Assembly: GCA_963663765.2 (NCBI GenBank) | Contig: CAXXUA010000004.1 | Location: 256,001 to 320,000 of the forward strand | Length of the DNA: 64,000 nt | Reading direction: 5' to 3' | DNA from: Candidatus Poribacteria bacterium | GTDB taxonomy: Bacteria > Poribacteria > WGA-4E > WGA-3G | Part shown: in pieces, positions 21,814-49,927 of the stretch | Numbering within the stretch: position 1 is the first letter of the stretch | How the letters are laid out: each line of letters begins with the position of its first letter | Notes under the pieces: generated by a model | The model's input: the letters and a program-made list of their open reading frames with translations, nothing else | Told to the model about the DNA's origin: nothing | Databases searched by the model: none | Translations under genes and position numbers: made by a program

Positions 21814-21950
21814 ATGAGTTTTGACGTTCAAGTTGTGTATTCGTAGGGGTGTGGTTTCCACACATGAATCTACGCAAACTCAAAAACCAAACGGGTTGGG
21901 GAACCCAACCCCTACGAATTCAACTACCAATTTTGATTGTCAAACTTCAT
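21814..21950. mobile_element. Small MITE flanked by TA
   Basis: TA-ATGAGTTTTGAC ... GTCAAACTTCAT-TA. Contains the inverted REP pair CGTAGGGGTGTGG.. / ..CCAACCCCTACG. Absent from the homologous position in 10470-10820. Confidence 0.7.
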
Positions 21951-27524: not shown

Positions 27525-28322
27525 ATGAGTACTGAAGTACAATTATCAAAATGGCAGAAATTCAGAAATACAGTTGTCTGGGAATACACCCAAGTTATTG
27601 TCGTTGCTCTTATTCTTGTTTTCGGATTCATTCGTCCCTTTGTAGTTGAAGCATTTAAGATACCTTCCGGATCTATGAAGGATACACTCCTAATCGGTGA
27701 CCGTATACTTGTCTGTAAATTCATATACGGATTCAAAATACCAGGAACTGATATAAAAATATTTGATTTTCATAAACCTGCACGCGGTGATGTTTTTGTG
27801 TTCATTCCCCCGCATGAAACAAACCGAAACTTCATCAAACGTATTGTTGCTATTGAAGGAGATACAGTACATACAGAAGACAATATTCTTTATGTAAATG
27901 GAATAGCAGTTAAAGATAGTGAATATGCAAAGTATACTGCTAACCATTTAGTCAGACGGAATAATTTTCCACCGTTCCGAAAAATGGAAAAATATATGCG
28001 AGGTAATGATTTCTACAGTGATTACACATTGACCGAAACTCAATTCAAACGTAAATTTCCTGAGGGCAAACCTTTTGTTGTACCAAAAGGCTATGTTTTT
28101 GCAATGGGAGATAATAGAGACCAAAGCAGCGATAGTCGCACTTGGGGACCTGTCCCTGTTGATAGCATCAAAGGACAAGCATTTATGGTATATTGGTCAT
28201 TCCGAGATTTAACAGACGAAAAATTTCATAATGCAAAAATATGGGAATTCTGGAAAATGATTGGTAATATAAGGTTCAATCGTATCGGAAAACTGATCCA
28301 TACATACCCCGGAATCGAATAA
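27525..28322 (+). CDS. lepB: Signal peptidase I
   Basis: 'FKIPSGSMKDTLLIGDRILV', 'FIKRIV' and 'FAMGDNRDQSSDSRTWG'. Confidence 0.97.
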   Translation: MSTEVQLSKWQKFRNTVVWEYTQVIVVALILVFGFIRPFVVEAFKIPSGSMKDTLLIGDRILVCKFIYGFKIPGTDIKIFDFHKPARGDVFVFIPPHETNRNFIKRIVAIEGDTVHTEDNILYVNGIAVKDSEYAKYTANHLVRRNNFPPFRKMEKYMRGNDFYSDYTLTETQFKRKFPEGKPFVVPKGYVFAMGDNRDQSSDSRTWGPVPVDSIKGQAFMVYWSFRDLTDEKFHNAKIWEFWKMIGNIRFNRIGKLIHTYPGIE

Positions 28323-30256
28323 TGTTTCAAGATAGACGAAATCTTATCATCGGTACTGCTGGACATGTTGATCACGGAAAAACTGCTCTGGTTGGTACTT
28401 TGACAGGTATTGAGACTGATAGACTCAAAGAGGAACGCGAACGCGGTCTGTCCATTGAACTGGGTTTTGCCTATTTTGACCTACCTGACAACTCACGTGC
28501 AGGTATAGTCGATGTGCCTGGACACGAAAAATTCATTCGCAACATGCTTTCTGGTGCTTATGGAATGGACATAGTCCTTTTCGTTGTGGATGCAAAAGAG
28601 GGGGTACAGGAACAGACACTTGAACACTTAGCAATTTTAGATTTACTGAGTATCTCAAACGGCATTCTCGTCATGACAAAGTCTGATTTAGCAACACCAG
28701 ACGAATTGCAGGAAGCAACCGAAATGACACAGGAAATACTTGTCGGTACTTCACTTGAGGGAATTCCTTCAGTTAGTGTTTCATCTATCACAGGGGACGG
28801 TATTGAAAAATTAAAACGGATGATAGTTGAACAAGTAAACATTGCCACAGATAAACAAATAATTGATGGGATACCTCGTCTATATGTTGATAGGGTTTTC
28901 TCAATACAAGGTTTTGGCGCGGTTGTAACTGGTACACTCATTGGAGGAACAGTCAATAAAGACCAGAGAATGGTTATTTTACCACAAGGAGACATCGTTC
29001 GCGTACGTGGTATCCAAGTACATAATGAACCTGCAAATGTCGCACAAGCTGGACAAAGAACAGCCCTAAACCTATCAGGTATTACTGCACAAAAAATACA
29101 ACGCGGGGATGTCCTATGTCCTATAGAGTATTTGAAAGTAACAGAGAACATTGATGTTTCGTTAAACGTGTTGTCCTCATTTCCAAGAATGCTTGAACAT
29201 TGGGGACGTTTCAGACTATATCTTGGTACACGAGAACTATTCTGCAGATTAATTCTATTGATTGATGAAGCAATACTACCCGGTGACGCCGTTCAAGTTC
29301 AACTGCGGTTGGAACACCCGATACTCACTTTCAGAGGTGATAGGATCATTATACGTGATTTTTCTGCTCAACACACTGTCGGGGGCGGTCAGGTAATTAA
29401 TCCTTTTGCTCCGAAACACAAACGTTTCACTCAAGATACAATAAACACTTTAGCAAAATGGGAAGAAGCAGACAACACACAAGTAGTAAATGCCGTCTTG
29501 GAAAATAGTCAGACTCTGTGTGTTGAAGAATCATTGCTTTTTTACTATATACCTTATTCTCAATCCGAAATAAATACCATTTTGAATTCATTAGAATCTG
29601 AAGAAAAAATCATCCGATGGGATAAAACTGGAAGAAATCCACTTGTTTCTGATGCTGCACGAACAAACCGTGTAATAGAAAAATTTCTAATCACATTGTC
29701 TAAATTTCATGAAACACATCCATTGCAAGTAGGTCAAAACGCTTCACAAATCTGCAGAGAACTCAAACTTGATGAGGTAGCTTTTGAGAAAATCACAAAT
29801 CAACTTATTCGGTCAAAGAAAATAGCTAAACATGGAAACCTGCTTAGGTTAGAATCTCATGAGATCCAGTTTTCTGAAGAGGAGTCATCTGCTAAAGAAA
29901 CACTTGAACAACTTTATTTAAATGCTGACATCAATACACCCGCACTAAAAGAATTGAACGCATTATTACCTGATTTTACACCACAACAGATTGAATCAAC
30001 TTTTTATGCTTTGTTAAATCTCGGTATGTTTATAAAAGCAGCGGATAATTTCTATCTTCACAAGGATGTTTATGAAAAGAAAAAAGAACTATTAACTAAT
30101 TTTCTACGAAAAAACGGTACGATCACAGTTGCAGAATTTCGTGAATTGGCACAGACATCTCGGAAATATGCTGTACCATTCCTTGAGTATTGTGATACAC
30201 AAAATGTTACAGTCCGTGATGGAAATGTACGGAGATTGTCAACAAAATATAGTTAA
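28322..30256 (+). CDS. selB: Selenocysteine-specific elongation factor
   Basis: 'IIGTAGHVDHGKT', 'DRLKEERERGLSIELGF', 'DVPGHEKFIRNM' and the C-terminal winged helix 'TSRKYAVPFLEYCD'. Overlaps the lepB stop (TAATG). Confidence 0.97.
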   Translation: MFQDRRNLIIGTAGHVDHGKTALVGTLTGIETDRLKEERERGLSIELGFAYFDLPDNSRAGIVDVPGHEKFIRNMLSGAYGMDIVLFVVDAKEGVQEQTLEHLAILDLLSISNGILVMTKSDLATPDELQEATEMTQEILVGTSLEGIPSVSVSSITGDGIEKLKRMIVEQVNIATDKQIIDGIPRLYVDRVFSIQGFGAVVTGTLIGGTVNKDQRMVILPQGDIVRVRGIQVHNEPANVAQAGQRTALNLSGITAQKIQRGDVLCPIEYLKVTENIDVSLNVLSSFPRMLEHWGRFRLYLGTRELFCRLILLIDEAILPGDAVQVQLRLEHPILTFRGDRIIIRDFSAQHTVGGGQVINPFAPKHKRFTQDTINTLAKWEEADNTQVVNAVLENSQTLCVEESLLFYYIPYSQSEINTILNSLESEEKIIRWDKTGRNPLVSDAARTNRVIEKFLITLSKFHETHPLQVGQNASQICRELKLDEVAFEKITNQLIRSKKIAKHGNLLRLESHEIQFSEEESSAKETLEQLYLNADINTPALKELNALLPDFTPQQIESTFYALLNLGMFIKAADNFYLHKDVYEKKKELLTNFLRKNGTITVAEFRELAQTSRKYAVPFLEYCDTQNVTVRDGNVRRLSTKYS

Positions 30257-30291
30257 CTCTCAATGATAAGATAATATCCATAACTGACAAT

Positions 30292-30385
30292 GGGGGAGGA
30301 TAGGGTCTGGTGTCCCTACCGGTCTTCAAAACCGGCTTGTCCATGCAAGTGGATAGGTGGGTTCGATTCCCACCCTCTCCCGCCA
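30292..30385 (+). tRNA. selC: tRNA-Sec (anticodon UCA)
   Basis: 8-bp acceptor stem GGGGGAGG/CCTCTCCC with G discriminator and CCA; extended D-stem with TGGT loop; CCGGT-CTTCAAA-ACCGG anticodon arm; long variable arm; GTGGG-TTCGATT-CCCAC T arm. Lies directly after selB. Confidence 0.97.
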
Positions 30386-30413
30386 TTCAAACTATCTACC
30401 AATTACAATACAA

Positions 30414-31343
30414 ATGAATAATAATTCAGTAATTACCCTTCCAATTGTTACTCCAAAAATACACAAACGTAGACATCCATCATGGATAAAGGCGCGTGTT
30501 CCTAGTGGTAAAAACTACACAGACCTAAAACAACTCATGCGTAATTTAAAACTACACACAGTCTGTGAAGAAGCAAAATGTCCCAATATCGGTGAATGTT
30601 GGAATAGTCGTACTGCTACATTTATGATTTTAGGAGATGTCTGCACACGTCGGTGTATGTTCTGTGCAGTAAAAAAAGGGAAGCCAAACGGTAACGCAGA
30701 CAAAGATGAACCCAGAAGACTTGGAGAAGCTGTAGGCTATTTGAAACTAAATCACGTTGTCATCACTTCTGTCAATCGTGACGATTTGTCTGATGGTGGA
30801 GCAACAGTATTTGCAGAATGTATCTCCGAAGCGCGGAAAAACCGTCCAACTTGTACCGTTGAAGTTCTTATACCTGATCTTGAAGGAAACTGGGACGCAC
30901 TTGAAGTGATCATACAAGCACAACCAGAAATACTAAACCACAATACCGAAACTGTTAAAAGACTCTATCGTCGTGTCAGACCTTATGCAAATTACCAACA
31001 ATCTTTAAATCTCTTAAAACTTGGTAAGAAAATGAATCCTAAAGCTCTTACAAAATCGGGACTTATGGTAGGTTTAGGTGAAACAATAATTGAACTCTTA
31101 GAAACTATGCAAGATATTCGTAACACGGGATGCGACATTCTTACAATCGGGCAGTATCTATCTCCATCCGCACGGCACCTTCCTATTCAACGTTATTATA
31201 CGCCTGAGGAATTCAATGAGTTAAAAGATGCAGGCTATGATATGGGTTTTCGCCATGTAGAATCTGGAGCCTTGGTTCGTAGTTCATACCACGCAAAAGA
31301 ACAAGCACAATTATCATTATTGAATTTAGCAGCCAAATCATAA
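30414..31343 (+). CDS. lipA: Lipoyl synthase
   Basis: CEEAKCPNIGEC and CTRRCMFC cluster motifs, plus C-terminal 'VRSSY'. Start moved to the ATG at 30414 because the track start lies inside selC. Confidence 0.98.
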   Translation: MNNNSVITLPIVTPKIHKRRHPSWIKARVPSGKNYTDLKQLMRNLKLHTVCEEAKCPNIGECWNSRTATFMILGDVCTRRCMFCAVKKGKPNGNADKDEPRRLGEAVGYLKLNHVVITSVNRDDLSDGGATVFAECISEARKNRPTCTVEVLIPDLEGNWDALEVIIQAQPEILNHNTETVKRLYRRVRPYANYQQSLNLLKLGKKMNPKALTKSGLMVGLGETIIELLETMQDIRNTGCDILTIGQYLSPSARHLPIQRYYTPEEFNELKDAGYDMGFRHVESGALVRSSYHAKEQAQLSLLNLAAKS

Positions 31344-31729
31344 TTTATCCCAGTGGTGTTTAAAGTTTGGTATTATTTATCCTGAAAATCTTGGTACAGA
31401 CGGAATAGTATTCCGCTCAAGCAGCCATCAGCAAACCACAGAAACCAAAAGTCATCATACCCTCAATCTCATTGGATATATATTGGATATATATTGGGAA
31501 TCCCCAAAGACAATCACACAAAAAACAACAAATCCCATTTAAAATCACAAAATATATCATATCTAAATGATTATGTAGCATTATTTCGTAGGTCGCAGGG
31601 TTATTTAGTTTTCAATATTTTTGGTATTATCTTGCTATGTCGTTAATTTTATGGGATACCATCTTGTCTCGTTCTTTAGTCCCGTATGAAGATTAATTTA
31701 TTAATCGGGTAATAAATATTTTTCAGATT

Positions 31730-33500
31730 GTAGGTGTGCTTTGTAAGCGCGCTCTTGGGACTTGATGTGCCAGCGCGCTTACAAAGCACGCCTGCAGGTG
31801 GGTGGGGGCGCTTACAAAGCACGCCTGCAGGTGGGGGGCAGTTGGAGGGCGCGCGGACAAAGCACGCCTGCAGGTGGAGGGCAATTGGAGGGTGCGCGGA
31901 CAAAGCACGCCTGCAGGTGGGGGGCAGTTGGAGGGCGCGCGGACAAAGCACGCCTGCAGGTGGGGGGCAGCTGGAGGGCGCGCGGACAAAGCACGCCTGC
32001 AGTTAGGGGACAGTGGGAGGGCGCGCTTACAAAGCACGCCTGCAGTTAGGGGGCAGTTGGAGGGCGCGCTTACAAAGCACGCCTGCAGTTAGGGGGCAGG
32101 TGGGGGGCGCGCTTACAAAGCACGCCTGCAGGTGGGGGGCAGTTGGAGGGCGCGCTTACAAAGCACGCCTGCAGGTGGGGGGCAGTGGGAGGGCGCGCTT
32201 ACAAAGCACGCCTGCAGTTAGGGGGCAGTGGGAGGGCGCGCTTACAAAGCACGCCTGCAGGTGGGGGGCGCGCTTACAAAGCACGCCTGCAGGTGGGGGG
32301 CAGTTGGAGGGCGCGCTTACAAAGCACGCCTGCAGTTAGGGGGCAGTGGGAGGGCGCGCTTACAAAGCACGCCTGCAGTTATACCCAATTAACGTGAGTC
32401 GTCTTGCTAAGTGTGCGGTTAGGAAACCGCACCTACCGTTGGAAAAAGATAAATTACGTTAATTTGGTATTAGGGGGCAGTGGGAGGGCGCGGCGGACAA
32501 AGCACGCCTGCAGTTAGGGGGCAGTGGGGAGGCGCGCGGACAAAGCACGCCTGCAGGTGGTGGCGCGCTTACAAAGCACGCCTGCAGGTGGGAGGCAGTT
32601 GGGGCGCGCGGACAAAGCACGCCTGCAGGTGGGAGGCAGTTGGGGCGCGCGGACAAAGCACGCCTGAAGGTGGGGAGCAGTTGGGGCGCGCGGACAAAGC
32701 ACGCCTGAAGGTGGGGGGCAGTTGGGGCGCGCGCGGACAAAGCACGCCTGCAGTTAGGGGGCAGTTGGAGGGCGCGCGGACAAAGCACGCCTGCAGGTGG
32801 GGGGCAGTTGGAGGGCGCGCGGACAAAGCACGCCTGCAGTTAGGGGACAGTGGGAGGGCGCGCTTACAAAGCACGCCTGCAGTTAGGGGGCAGTGGAAGG
32901 GCGCGCTTACAAAGCAGCCTGCAGTTAGGGGGCAGGTGGGGGGCGCGCTTACAAAGCACGCCTGAAGGTGGGGGGCAGTGGGAGGGCGCGCTTACAAAGC
33001 ACGCCTGCAGTTAGGGGGCAGTTGGAGGGCGCGCTTACAAAGCACGCCTGCAGTTAGGGGGCAGTGGGAGGGCGCGCTTACAAAGCAGCCTGCAGTTAGG
33101 GGGCAGTTGGAGGGCGCGCTTACAAAGCACGCCTGCAGTTAGGGGGCAGGTGGGGGGCGCGCTTACAAAGCACGCCTGCAGGTGGGGGGCAGTGGGAGGG
33201 CGCGCTTACAAAGCACGCCTGCAGTTAGGGGGCAGTTGGAGGGCGCGCTTACAAAGCACGCCTGCAGTTAGGGGGCAGTGGGAGGGCGCGGCGGACAAAG
33301 CACGCCTGCAGTTAGGGGGCAGTGGGGAGGCGCGCGGACAAAGCACGCCTGCAGTTAGGGGGCAGGTGGGGGGGCGCGGACAAAGCACCAAATCAACGGT
33401 ATGAATGCCATTTAGGCATTCCCCGCCTGCGGTTGGGGGTGCGCGGACAAAGCACCAAATCAACGGTATGAATGCCATTTAGGCATTCCCCGCCTACCGT
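31730..33500 (+). repeat. About 38-copy, ~43-bp G-rich tandem array derived from a REP
   Basis: Core CGCGC(TT/GG)ACAAAGCACGCCTG(C/A)AG followed by G-rich linkers; preceded by one inverted copy GTAGGTGTGCTTTGTAAGCGCGC. Copy number counted by eye. Confidence 0.97.
32382..32469. mobile_element. 88-bp MITE inserted in an array unit with a TTA duplication
   Basis: TTA-TACCCAATTAACGT ... ACGTTAATTTGGTA-TTA interrupts CAGTTAGGGGG; carries a GTGCGGTTAGGAAACCGCACCTAC hairpin. Confidence 0.85.
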
Positions 33501-33813
33501 AGCCGGATTAGTAGAATTACTCAAAGTATTTTTTAATCTTCAATAGGGACTATATGTTTATAGAAAATGTTTTCCACCCCACTTGAGTTCCGTAGGAATG
33601 ACATAGAAGAATAAAAATATCGTCCCTACGGGACTAAAGAACTGTGGAGAGTATTCGTTTTCTATAAACATATCGTCCCTACGGGACTATAGAGCGATGT
33701 TCATGTTTCAAAAATCTAAAACTGATGCATAAAGTTCGGTTAGGAAACCGAAACTGGATATTAACTTTCAGTAAATCTCAATAACAGAAAACTCTTAAAA
33801 CTAAATAACCCTT

Positions 33814-33925
33814 CGTAGGTCGGGTAGAACTTGCGAAACTCAACACGTATGATTTAATGTAAGTTTCCAATGTCGGGTTTCGCAAGCTTTACCCAACCTA
33901 CAGTTTATTCGGTGCGTAAGTCCTG
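33814..33925. repeat. REP doublet plus an orphan TGCGTAAGTCCTG end
   Basis: GTAGGTCGGGTAGAACTTGCGAAAC ... GTTTCGCAAGCTTTACCCAACCTAC, followed by a right end of the CAGGACTTACGCA family. Confidence 0.7.
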
Positions 33926-34478
33926 TAAGAAAACACAAACAAAAAAACGATGAAAAATCCATTTAGTTGTTTTTTTCAAAATTTCCGAAATTCTTAAAAC
34001 CGAGATAAAACCATACCACAACAGGATCGAGGACACTTATGAAAAAAAATGCAAAATACAAGAAAAAAACAACTAACATTTTTCTCAATTGACACATGTT
34101 TCACAGCATAGCAAATGTATCAGGCTAATTGTTTACATTCCATTTCATAAATCATCCGTAGTGTAGGGTCACCGTTGCCTGCGATGGATATCCATTTGCC
34201 ATGAATATACCATTGTAAAGTGATGTTCCTTTGGAATACCTTTAGACGAATATGCACATGGTAAATGCTATGATTCATACCGTTGATTTGGAGAAAGCCA
34301 AAGGCACATGCATACCTAAGATATGGTGATTCCGACAAAACCTATGATACAGTCTACACACATGAAAAATATTTACAGCCCAGATGTTACTTTTATATGA
34401 TGTTTTATTTCTGTATGTGCTATACTAATTACAATTACATTTTGACTATTCACATAGACACTAAACTCAAAACATATA

Positions 34479-34600
34479 CAGGACTTACGCAGTTTTCATG
34501 ATCCAATCAAGAATTAAGACGAAAACGATGTAATTTCCAGCATTTTTTAGGTTTCCGGCGCGCTTACAAAGCACGCCTACCGTTGGGTGCATAAGTCCTG
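34479..34600. mobile_element. MITE, CAGGACTTACGCA family
   Basis: Terminal inverted repeats with 1 mismatch; 5-bp duplication ATATA; ends 24 bp upstream of dapB. Confidence 0.9.
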
Positions 34601-34624
34601 ATATAAATAAACAAGGAAATCCTA

Positions 34625-35434
34625 ATGGTAAATGTTATCGTTAATGGTGCCTGTGGGCGGATGGGTAGACTGATTATCAAAGGTGTTGCTCAACAAGAGG
34701 ATATGCAAGTTGTAGGTGCAATTGAATTTGCACAACATCCAGAGATAGGAAATGATATTGGAATCGTTTCAGGTATAGGTGAATTGGATGTTAAAATCAA
34801 CAGCAAGCTCAGTGATGTAATTGAAAAGGGTGATGTTGTCATTGAATTCTCAAAACCAAACGCTTCATTAGTACATCTACGACAAGTTGTGAAAGCTGAT
34901 AAAGCAATGGTTCTTGCTACCACAGGATTTAGTTCAGACGAATTAGCAGAAATACACGAGCTCGCACCAAAGATACGCTGCGTCATGGCACCAAACATGA
35001 GCCTCGGTGTAAATGTAATGATCAAAGCACTTGAATTAATCGCAAAATCTCTTGGCGATGACTATGATATTGAAGTGATAGAGGCACACCACAATCACAA
35101 AGCCGACTCACCCAGCGGCACTGCACTCAGATTAGCAGAGACAGTTGCCAACGCATTAGGACGAGATTTGGAGGAAGTTGGAGTTTACGGTAGACATGGA
35201 ATCATCGGACCTCGTCCGAATAAACAGATCGGAATACATGCAATTCGGGGTGGTGACATCGCAGGTGACCACACCGTTATGTTTGCTACTGAGGGTGAAC
35301 GTCTCAGTGTTGTCCACCGCGCACATAGTCCTGAAGCGTTTGCTAAAGGGGCAATCCGTGCTGCAAGGTGGGTCATAAATGCTTCCAGAGGATTACACGA
35401 TGTCAGCGAAGTCCTTTTTGAACAGAGTCAATAG
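34625..35434 (+). CDS. dapB: 4-hydroxy-tetrahydrodipicolinate reductase
   Basis: 'GACGRMG', 'APNMSLGVN', 'IEAHHNHKADSPSGTA' and 'IRGGDIAGDHTV'. Confidence 0.97.
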   Translation: MVNVIVNGACGRMGRLIIKGVAQQEDMQVVGAIEFAQHPEIGNDIGIVSGIGELDVKINSKLSDVIEKGDVVIEFSKPNASLVHLRQVVKADKAMVLATTGFSSDELAEIHELAPKIRCVMAPNMSLGVNVMIKALELIAKSLGDDYDIEVIEAHHNHKADSPSGTALRLAETVANALGRDLEEVGVYGRHGIIGPRPNKQIGIHAIRGGDIAGDHTVMFATEGERLSVVHRAHSPEAFAKGAIRAARWVINASRGLHDVSEVLFEQSQ

Positions 35435-37478
35435 ATATACAAAACGTGTACTATCAAGTGTATTTCTATGCAACATTATTGCGATAATGTTAGTTCTCGG
35501 TTGCTCAAACACACCGAAAAAATCCATCGGTGTATGGAAAACCGTTTTGGAAGGGGATTGGAATGCTCGATTAAACGATGTTCATTTTGTTACTGAAACA
35601 CATGGATGGGCTGTGGGAAATGCAATCGGGCAGGTTCCTAATCATTCGCATCAGGAAGCCAGCAATTCCAATCATTCTTATAACGATGGCGCAGAAAGCA
35701 TTATTATCCATACGAACGATGGTGGTAAAAATTGGAAGAGACAACATAGTGGAATATTTGGACATCCTTTAAATAAAGTTTTTTTCCTAAGCAAGAATAA
35801 AGGATGGTGTGTTGGGGAAGCAGGTGTAATCATAACCACAATGGATGGAGGCAGAAATTGGAAACAGATTGAAACATCCACAAAACATAATCTTCATAGC
35901 ATATATTTGAAAAATAATACTGGATGGATAGTGGGTGATTGGGGAACAATCCTAAAATCTGTTGATGGTGGTAAAACTTATAAGCAAGTTGATGGTAGTT
36001 CTATCCGTAGGAAATCATTAAAAGGTATTTATTTTTTTGACAATTTAAACGGATGGATTATCACCTACAGCACACCGAATCAAAATGAACAACCAGGAAA
36101 TATCTATTTTACCGATGATGGTGGAACAACATGGCATAAACAATTCTCAACAGATTCAGCTCTTTTTGGTTTATATTTTATTGATAGAATGAATGGATGG
36201 GTGATAGGAGACAAACGTAGTCTTTATACAACAATTGACGGTGGAGAAACTTGGGAATTTGTAACTGATGGAAGCAACATAAGACATAAGGAAGAATACG
36301 GTCAACCTGAATATTTTGGGAACGAACCCCTACACACATTTACTTTATATGATATTGATGTTGTTGATAATCAGTATGGATGGATTGTTGGTGATTTAGG
36401 GGTTGTCCTTCATACTAAGTCTGTTCTGATGAAGAATGAAAAGAACGTTTGGAAACATCAACGCGGAGGTCCAAGGTTTCACAACAGTTCGGACGGTGTG
36501 CTATTAGGAGTAGATTTTGTATCAAAAAAACTGGGTTGGACGGTAGGTGAAAACGGGACTATTCTACATACCCGCAACGGTGGAATCACTTGGGAGGCAC
36601 AATCAAGTCCAACACATCTGCTTTTTGATGTTTGTATTACATCTAAAAACAGTGGATTCGTAGTCGGCGATCGTGGTACGATACTTCAAACAGATGATGG
36701 TGGAAGTAAATGGAACGCGCAAGATAGTCGTACAGCAGAATGTTTCGGAGCAACACATTTTGTAACAAAACAAAAAGGATGGGCGGTTGCTGAAGCTGGA
36801 GTAATACTTCATACGACAAACGGTGGGGAAGTATGGCTACCACAAACATCCAATACAAAACAAGACTTACTCACAGTTTTCTTTGTAGATGCTGAAACCG
36901 GATGGTGCGCCGGTAGTGCAGGTGAAATCGTTCACACCTCGGATGGTGGAAAAACATGGTCAAAACAAAAAAGTGGCACTCTATTTAACCTATTTGATAT
37001 ACATTTTACGTCAAAGAATGATGGGTGGGTTGTTGGTTTATTTGGAACATTGATATTTACTATTGATGGTGGCAAAAAATGGCAGCTTTCAACACTAACA
37101 CACCATCTCTCAAAAACAGATAGAAATAAAAATATTTGGTTAAATGCAGTCTATTTTGTTAATAAAGACGTAGGTTGGGTTGTTGGTGAGGACGGTTTTG
37201 TTTTCCATACAAAGAATAGTGGTAAAACTTGGTCTCGCAAATTCAGTAACACACAAGACTTTCTTTATGATGTGTTTTTTATTTCAAATGAAGAAGGTTG
37301 GATCGTCGGTAAAAACGGTATTGTTCTTCACACAATGGATGGTGGAGAGAATTGGAGACCTCAACGAACGGATACACGAACAGACCTTACATCAATACAA
37401 ATGAGTAGTTCACGTTCTGGTTTAGTAACTGGACAAGGTGGAACTATTTTGAAATATGAAGTCATTGAAACGGAATAA
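35400..37478 (+). CDS. YCF48/BNR-repeat beta-propeller lipoprotein
   Basis: Many 'GW.VG..G.ILHT.DGG..W' repeats and a lipobox-like 'VLGC'; start uncertain. Confidence 0.88.
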   Translation: MSAKSFLNRVNRYTKRVLSSVFLCNIIAIMLVLGCSNTPKKSIGVWKTVLEGDWNARLNDVHFVTETHGWAVGNAIGQVPNHSHQEASNSNHSYNDGAESIIIHTNDGGKNWKRQHSGIFGHPLNKVFFLSKNKGWCVGEAGVIITTMDGGRNWKQIETSTKHNLHSIYLKNNTGWIVGDWGTILKSVDGGKTYKQVDGSSIRRKSLKGIYFFDNLNGWIITYSTPNQNEQPGNIYFTDDGGTTWHKQFSTDSALFGLYFIDRMNGWVIGDKRSLYTTIDGGETWEFVTDGSNIRHKEEYGQPEYFGNEPLHTFTLYDIDVVDNQYGWIVGDLGVVLHTKSVLMKNEKNVWKHQRGGPRFHNSSDGVLLGVDFVSKKLGWTVGENGTILHTRNGGITWEAQSSPTHLLFDVCITSKNSGFVVGDRGTILQTDDGGSKWNAQDSRTAECFGATHFVTKQKGWAVAEAGVILHTTNGGEVWLPQTSNTKQDLLTVFFVDAETGWCAGSAGEIVHTSDGGKTWSKQKSGTLFNLFDIHFTSKNDGWVVGLFGTLIFTIDGGKKWQLSTLTHHLSKTDRNKNIWLNAVYFVNKDVGWVVGEDGFVFHTKNSGKTWSRKFSNTQDFLYDVFFISNEEGWIVGKNGIVLHTMDGGENWRPQRTDTRTDLTSIQMSSSRSGLVTGQGGTILKYEVIETE

Positions 37479-49589: not shown

Positions 49590-49927
49590 GCGTAATACCC
49601 TCTTGTCCATGTCTTTAGTTCCGTAGGAACGATATGTTTATAGAAAATGTTTTCAGCCCCAATAGAGTTCCGTAGGAACGACATAGAAGAATACACATAT
49701 CGTCCCTACGGGACTAAAGACATGGGGAGGGTATTCGTTATCTATAAACATATCGTCCCTACCAAATCAACGCCAAATGCGCGTGTGGCATTTGTCGGGA
49801 CTAAAGAGCGATATTCAGTTTTCAATAAATTAAAATTGATGCGTAAAATTCGGTTAGGAAACCGAACCTGGGTATTCACTTTCAGTAAATCTCAAGAACA
49901 GAAAACTCTTAAAACTGAATAACCCTC
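49590..49927. mobile_element. REP-bearing MITE remnant (short homolog of 31596-33813)
   Basis: Same order of CCGTAGG(A/G)ACGA hairpins, TTCGGTTAGGAAACCGAA, and right end AAAACTGAATAACCCT; left end not recognisable. Confidence 0.7.

Follow-up and report, generated by a model that had tools for sequence, protein, structure and literature searches.

DDE transposase families are customarily recognized by a duplication of fixed length, and in the IS630 family the feature is duplication of a TA target. According to the available text of published accounts, IS630 transposases have a classical DD35E spacing (PMC11544213), and REP targeting is known for elements of other families, namely IS3, IS110, IS4, IS256 and IS5 (PMC1525189). 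Those REP-targeting elements include IS1397, ISKpn1, IS621, ISPa11, ISPpu9/10 and ISRm22 (Tobes and Pareja 2006, PMC1525189); the names IS630 and ISAs1 do not occur in the available main text of that article. MITEs and REPs have been reviewed as IS targets (PMC3184786), and REP doublets and tandem clusters are likewise known (PMC3116915, PMC3733652), in each case within the available text. Among eukaryotic DDE systems, RAG transposition is described as preferring the last bases of cruciform hairpin tips, with 84% of events within four nucleotides (PMC1618415, Posey et al. 2006, available text).

The locus described here lies in a window of 64,000 nucleotides, positions 256001-320000 of contig C4 (CAXXUA010000004.1) of a Candidatus Poribacteria genome (G000; 6.35 Mb, 41% GC, 15 contigs). 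Unless a contig is given, positions are those of the window. Between lipA (30357-31343) and dapB (34625-35434) is a nest of transposase-less elements around a repeat array. A preliminary description had each layer landing in the palindrome or repeat of the layer below, and had concluded that several unrelated transposition chemistries target REP hairpins. The nest itself exists: all its layers were present, and their excision in silico, layer by layer, returned intact family members. With a probability of roughly 0.7, we explain the whole by the history of a mobile composite together with a hairpin-loop target rule followed by one of its components, element B.

In 10 of 19 relative loci lipA and dapB were adjacent, with spacers of 131-684 bp and nothing matching the nest, and the 3.3-kb spacer is therefore lineage-specific. 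None of the 19 loci supplied a strain-level empty site, and in the closest relative lipA and dapB lay on separate contigs. The preliminary description had named misassembly as a ground for refutation, and indeed no contig from the public runs spans the array in one piece. Even so, it is most improbable that the array region was assembled wrongly, with the nest partly an artefact, as exact duplications close every layer, excision yields gap-free family members and shorter versions of the nest occur at other loci. A single public contig also bridges the left junction of the outermost element (31300-31654), although the runs used for this check may themselves be the source of the assembly. An Rfam scan of 30000-36000 returned just the tRNA-Sec upstream and chance miRNA-like matches under the cut-off. 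In this upstream region (28322-30381) tRNA-Sec comes after selB and overlaps the lipA frame in its longest reading.

The outermost element, A, had the extent (31596-33813) and the 17-bp inverted ends proposed for it, the ends matching at 16 of 17 positions with the last base mutated. Its target duplication was exact and 9 bp long (31587-31595 and 33814-33822), the left copy being the head of the outer GTAG REP. Without element B, A is a shell of 359 bp with GTAG hairpins of its own, and 336 of the 359 positions were identical, without gaps, to an intact copy at C4:322559-322917. Fifty-six full-length copies were found. With inverted ends, a target duplication and no transposase gene, A is a MITE, and the suggested search for an autonomous element sharing its ends succeeded in the same genome. 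About a dozen full copies of a 1315-bp element were found that end as A does and are flanked by 9-bp duplications. This partner encodes an ISAs1 transposase (NF033564, 234 bits against a cut-off of 70). Exact duplications were found in 90 of 200 adjacent pairs of A-type ends (72 of 9 bp, 16 of 10 bp and 2 of 8 bp), the other 110 pairs having none. A is thus like the ISAs1 family and its MITEs, in that its partner passes the ISAs1 model and its duplications are of 8-10 bp, mostly 9, and nothing about it is unusual save its REP cargo and the nested composite. The stretch 49590-49927, put forward for comparison, is indeed a copy of family A and carries, near 49763-49796, a 34-nt variant of the module described below, but it holds the right end only and is not a complete copy, the left end being missing.

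Two further observations concern these elements. At C5:1386270-1387722 several copies of A form a head-to-tail array and share near-identical spacers, and at C5:353372 (L004) an IS200/IS605-type tnpA gene is interrupted by a full ISAs1 element.

The outer REP had been described as split by A. Because the 9-bp duplication includes the GTAG head, the REP doublet is regenerated whole at 33815-33901, and A lies at the foot of the REP. The right copy of the duplication and the intact doublet together occupy 33814-33901 on the plus strand, with arms at 33815-33845 and 33871-33901. Beyond it, on the minus strand at 33913-33925, another abundant MITE family, which has 691 ends of this kind in the genome, is represented by an unpaired end; no partner for this end was found near the left side of the nest. 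A 1.1-kb multi-copy element with ends of this type (L253) encodes a transposase-like ORF.

Element B, a MITE with imperfect 28-bp inverted ends that we assign to a hairpin-seeking IS630 subgroup, lies inside A. Its presence agreed with the preliminary description; its ends did not, being one base further out on each side (31686-33543 in place of 31687-33542). The right terminal T is mutated to A. B sits, as had been claimed, in a hairpin of A, which has a 3-nt loop, and a single T is duplicated at 31685/33544. The REP cargo of B occupies 31730-33497 on the plus strand and consists of a 68-nt GTAG REP doublet (31730-31797) followed by 37 head-to-tail units of the right arm and a G-rich linker; TRF gave 37.4 copies with a period of 43. 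Fold z-scores were -8.5 for the array doublet, -4.2 for the outer doublet and -0.83, not significant, for the linker.

Both the array and the outer element have the GTAG head, palindrome, doublet hairpin and many intergenic copies of GTAG REPs and REPINs. The array resembles the GTAG REPs, REPINs and tandem REP clusters in the available text of PMC3733652 and PMC3116915 in its GTAG-headed hairpins, doublets and tandem clustering and in the presence of a RAYT in the genome, and differs from them in that its REP rides inside DDE MITEs. The word Poribacteria does not occur in the available text of PMC3733652. The proposal that MITEs take REPs as cargo was borne out, as A, B and C each carry GTAG-type hairpins inside. 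A PF01797 search of the genome found a single RAYT gene (L005, C4:621661), with long tandem REP arrays on both sides that belong to a family other than that of the nest; further RAYTs may have escaped the search or have been lost. The end pattern of B was present in 39 of 40 genomes of the genus, and no ORF-bearing copy of B was found in this genome. Insertion of the REP into B at GTAG was considered; it fits two 89-bp copies of B, whereas the REP of most copies lacks a direct GTAG repeat. The 89-bp copies may be deletion products.

Element C (32382-32469) is an 88-bp MITE of an IS630-family element that duplicates TNA. As claimed, it splits one array unit and is flanked by a TTA duplication (32379-32381 and 32470-32472). 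A palindromic landing site was not borne out, as C lies at a TTA of the linker, one of 19 such sites available in the array, and the linker fold was not significant (z -0.83). We found 47 full copies of C and an autonomous partner in the genome, a 1156-bp IS630 element with similar, not identical, ends whose transposase scored 218 bits with NF033545 (cut-off 100). C and its partner depart from the TA duplication of the family in duplicating three bases (TNA), the empty site being the array unit; in 55 pairs selected for a 3-bp match, the duplication was TTA/TAA in 51 and TGA/TCA in 4. An IS630-family element at L028:212-1324 also has 3-bp TNA duplications instead of TA, and no report of IS630-family elements with such duplications was found in the literature searched. 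Elsewhere, at C4:320508-320868, four copies of C form a head-to-tail array and share TTA.

The 36-nt inserts described in the last two array units were confirmed at 33389-33424 and 33456-33491, both on the plus strand. Each is a tail-plus-hairpin module between the C and the G of a REP arm, the first without a duplication. Among 206 strict copies of the module, C preceded it in 193 and G followed it in 183. The module lay inside a hairpin at 37 of 78 distinct junctions, against 82 of 300 controls, mostly in the arm and 8 bases from the centre. Its junctions are dominated by a few host families, and amplification with the host therefore contributes. No enzyme for the module was identified. By description it is like the small dispersed repeats of Nostoc, which Elhai et al. 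in 2008 reportedly presented as tiny hairpin units found inside other repeats.

A search of the genome for the A-B junction gave 14 matches. The same B subtype was found in the same A hairpin at C4:1160376 (B of 375 bp) and C6:85809 (89 bp), each with its own exact 9-bp duplication, as well as at C6:162921 (89 bp), near position 1377222 of C5 (1380 bp) and at C4:60888, where the right part is lost. Across the composite loci the length of B ranged from 89 to 1858 bp. Both insert-bearing tail units were also present at C4:1160376, and C was in no composite copy but the one described here. In a tree of the shells, which holds only three composite copies, these three complete shells formed one clade (support 0.979) that excluded 14 empty copies.

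The A::B composite has duplications of its own at further sites, so the layers are not independent events at this locus. The sequences suggest that A and B reached it already assembled, together with the insert-bearing tail units. A rather unlikely alternative is that no composite moved and that B entered the same hairpin of different A copies repeatedly and independently. This hairpin is the commonest target of B, with 418 intact copies, and related A hairpins are occupied by other B subtypes, as repeated entry would predict; yet the composites have a B subtype and tail units in common, and their shells fall in one clade. A second moving composite, in which A lies inside another inverted-repeat shell with identical flanks, was observed at C2:92443, C4:322559, C6:162000, C13:307621 and C13:753459.

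For the composite we envisage four steps. First, a divergent IS630 transposase acting in trans would have moved B, a MITE with REP cargo, into a hairpin loop of an ancestral A; the parent, its target rule (both described below) and the composite copies were observed, and from them we infer a single insertion event. An ISAs1 transposase would then have copied the A::B composite to several sites, in this case by chance at the foot of a REP, in keeping with the separate 9-bp duplications and with the lack of hairpin preference reported below. The REP arm in B would have been amplified in tandem, presumably by slippage or unequal exchange, and the observed lengths differ at each locus. C would have been the last to land, on one of the 19 linker TTA sites.

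The targeting of hairpins was assessed from empty sites rebuilt for distinct targets, a target being hairpin-centred when a stem of at least 5 bp lay at the site. Such targets made up 3 of 126 for A and 3 of 52 for C, with controls of 4.4% and 5.3%, respectively, and 9 of 15 for B, with controls of 4.3%. The target lay inside any hairpin in 21 of 126 cases for A (controls 20%), 10 of 52 for C (controls 23%) and 10 of 15 for B. Sites repeated at least three times elsewhere were depleted among the targets of A (21 of 126, against 239 of 600 controls) and numbered 14 of 52 for C (against 206 of 600) and 7 of 15 for B. A lay at a GTAG head in 4 of 126 cases, against 3.9% of controls, and neither A nor C had most of its copies in REPs at one position. 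Targeting of hairpins by A and C is refuted by these counts.

That unrelated chemistries (ISAs1, IS630 and HUH) all target REP hairpins, and that the nest records successive targeted hits at this site, is accordingly very unlikely. The idea draws on the position of every layer here within a repeat, on the preference of B and of the 36-nt module for hairpin repeats and on the published REP targeting by five IS families (PMC1525189, available text). Against it, A and C were at chance or depleted in four tests, and the composite is common to other loci. Repeats make up about 40% of the non-coding positions of this genome, and chance nesting is therefore common. Two layers of the nest landed by chance, and we regard the nest as mostly hitch-hiking and chance with one targeted step, that of B.

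The parent of B was absent from this genome, and mobilisation here is therefore past or came from outside the assembly. The autonomous element with the ends of B, a search for which had been proposed, was found in other Poribacteria by a genus-wide search with a TA-duplicating IS630 sister of this genome; it is 1234-1244 bp long (1332 bp in one copy) and has one ORF. All 80 loci among the matches listed were in Poribacteria genomes. The parent protein was 35-38% identical to that of the sister and scored 179 and 146 bits with the NCBIfam IS630 profile, above the cut-off. The sister (C4:684866-686088), a DD35E element that duplicates TA, has ends with the 28-bp layout of B, and the DD35E sister elements had TA|TA in all 10 copies with ends. 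A MITE family at position 21950 (56 ends), mostly inside one further repeat, also has sister-related ends.

Both ends were present at 78 of the 80 parent loci, most of which come from one genome and are not independent. In 74 of these 78 the insertion was centred on a stem of at least 5 bp, and none had a TA duplication. The junction bases were identical on both sides in 59 of the 78 and complementary instead in 13. Among the 59 identical-base junctions the stem was centred in 58, with 0% at offsets of 1-4 bases. Nineteen distinct target 15-mers of the parent shared only YY...RR, with pyrimidines leading into the loop and purines following it; a stem of at least 5 bp accompanies just 5.7% of non-coding YY-N3-RR sites. 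The targets of B itself showed a fixed position in many unrelated hairpins, some of them not repeated, and no single REP consensus; 6 of the 15 paired targets lacked a centred stem. These sequences suggest that the enzyme of B chooses its target by self-complementarity and not by a sequence motif. The preliminary view of REP hairpins as landing pads survives for B and its parent, in part for the 36-nt module, and not for A or C.

Symmetric TG|CA parent junctions, with a right flank that reads as the left one reverse-complemented, were observed at L125, L132, L133 and L150, with related cases at L134, L141 and L151. The reciprocal hybrid of these junctions was not seen, and a 4-nt TGCA loop was rejected as their source, there being 0 intact copies in four genomes.

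The duplication made by B appears to equal 4 minus the length of the loop: +1 at 3 nt, 0 at 4 nt and -1 at 5 nt. A hairpin was resolved in 36 of the 71 distinct B flanks that have intact copies and in none of the other 35. The junction lay two bases into the loop in 29 of the 36 resolved flanks (21 three-nt, 6 four-nt and 2 five-nt loops). In one hairpin family all loops found here are of 4 nt (190) or 5 nt (247); B entered these hairpins after two bases at 17 of 21 ends, with three loop bases kept at the other 4. A fixed 1-bp duplication would set a ceiling of 50% on such two-base entries (p 0.004), and the wider flanks of the 21 ends were nearly all different. Paired cases gave the lengths directly. 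At C2:89681 (AA|AA) the intact form was AAAA in 138 copies and AAA in 0, that is, a blunt insertion, and at C4:1092183 (TA|AT) the intact 5-nt form was found 158 times and shorter forms 0 times, that is, one base was lost. The 0 and -1 classes comprise one unambiguous paired case each in this genome and one arm-variant case in genome G044, a second TA|AT, where the main form had 5-nt loops in 68 of its 69 intact hairpins. In genome G023, 7 of 54 four-nt-loop copies have ATTA, so its case is ambiguous, and for TC|CT junctions both 3-nt and 4-nt loop forms exist, so loop length is not separable. A universal 1-bp duplication for B was rejected on the counts of intact loop variants.

These junctions would be explained if each transposon end were joined about two bases into the loop, measured from its own arm. 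On duplex DNA the stagger of a rigid dimer should not vary, and separate measurement from each arm therefore points to a hairpin that is extruded or melted, the capture of which we consider, from the junction sequences, the likely physical cause. Alternatively, the enzyme of B might act on ordinary duplex DNA, recognizing a weak symmetric consensus and cutting with a constant 1-bp stagger, the 0 and -1 junctions being later changes through recombination between copies or loop mutation. A 3-nt loop with +1 does account for most paired sites (11 of the 12 pairs of B that could be resolved and the 59 of 78 parent copies), the 13 complementary parent junctions would be compatible with later change, and hybrid flanks from recombination are described for other IS families (PMC1525189, available text). 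We nevertheless consider this alternative doubtful, as two bases were kept by 17 of 21 ends in hairpins with 4-nt or 5-nt loops, and the consensus alone predicts stems at about 6% of sites, not 95%. Capture of an open hairpin remains our preferred explanation.

The catalytic spacing of the B parent was DD59-60E in place of DD35E, owing to an insert of about 25 residues, located at approximately 288-316 of the 384-residue protein and common to many environmental relatives. Spacing was readable in 83 of 150 representative relatives, at 58-63 in 52 and at 34-36 in 31. A structure model from 8 sequences (pLDDT 43.6) was set aside; in the model used, from 101 sequences (pLDDT 93.8), the insert was predicted as an ordered irregular loop and the fold was closest to Mos1 (E 4.7e-10), consistent with an IS630 profile on a mariner-type fold. 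The insert did not form one clean clade in the tree, with 8 of 76 misplaced. Among the matches listed from a plasmid search (30 of 1485) were only IS630 proteins, none exceeding about 27% identity.

Eighty metagenome loci of insert-bearing relatives gave 38 distinct elements with both ends and flanks. The ends of these distant DD57-72E elements resembled those of B, and 96% of flanks had T two bases away from the junction. There was no duplication in 23 of the 38, one base in 9 and two bases in 6, and a stem of at least 5 bp was present in 15 of 38, against 0.9 in shuffled pairings. The symmetry preference reaches beyond Poribacteria; in these relatives it is weaker and in another register. 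We hypothesize a link between insert and targeting, in which the insert in the catalytic domain may read the hairpin.

The parent of B is like IS630/Tc1/mariner elements (Mos1, 5HOO and 3HOS) and their MITEs in profile, fold, inverted ends, length of about 1.2 kb and single ORF. It differs from them in having TA at 0 of 78 junctions, the DD59-60E spacing, a target chosen by palindrome and a junction that depends on loop length. REP-targeting IS likewise enter REP palindromes at one set position, which for ISRm22 is the symmetry axis, but each hits one conserved REP consensus, whereas B uses at least 19 different hairpin 15-mers (PMC1525189, available text). As a DDE enzyme entering hairpin tips, RAG offers an analogy for how the enzyme of B may work, although RAG is eukaryotic, belongs to another family and was studied in vitro, while the pattern of B is read from genomic insertions only (PMC1618415, available text). 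No report of an IS630 element targeting hairpin loops was found in the part of the literature searched.

A more general reading, which we offer tentatively and at somewhat less than even odds, is that a widespread undescribed IS630 subgroup (DD58-63E) captures extruded hairpins. Each active site would measure from its own arm and loop length would set the duplication, with the proline-rich insert as the reader; this would be a bacterial counterpart of RAG hairpin-tip transposition in which REPs, safe and present in many copies, would serve as the landing pad.

Stacking of this sort is known, and the nest adds an example of it, with the hairpin-loop IS630 as its one surprising part; the loop-length rule and the insert are what is added, on modest numbers. 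As ordinary selfish-DNA stacking, it warns against inferring targeting from a single locus. A sequence-independent, hairpin-addressed integrase could serve as a useful tool. Guidance of transposition in cells by hairpins or cruciforms is testable with a single 384-residue enzyme and its TA-duplicating DD35E sister as a natural control. If true, the loop-dependent duplication would count as direct evidence from genomes that DNA structure is recognized by a small bacterial transposase.
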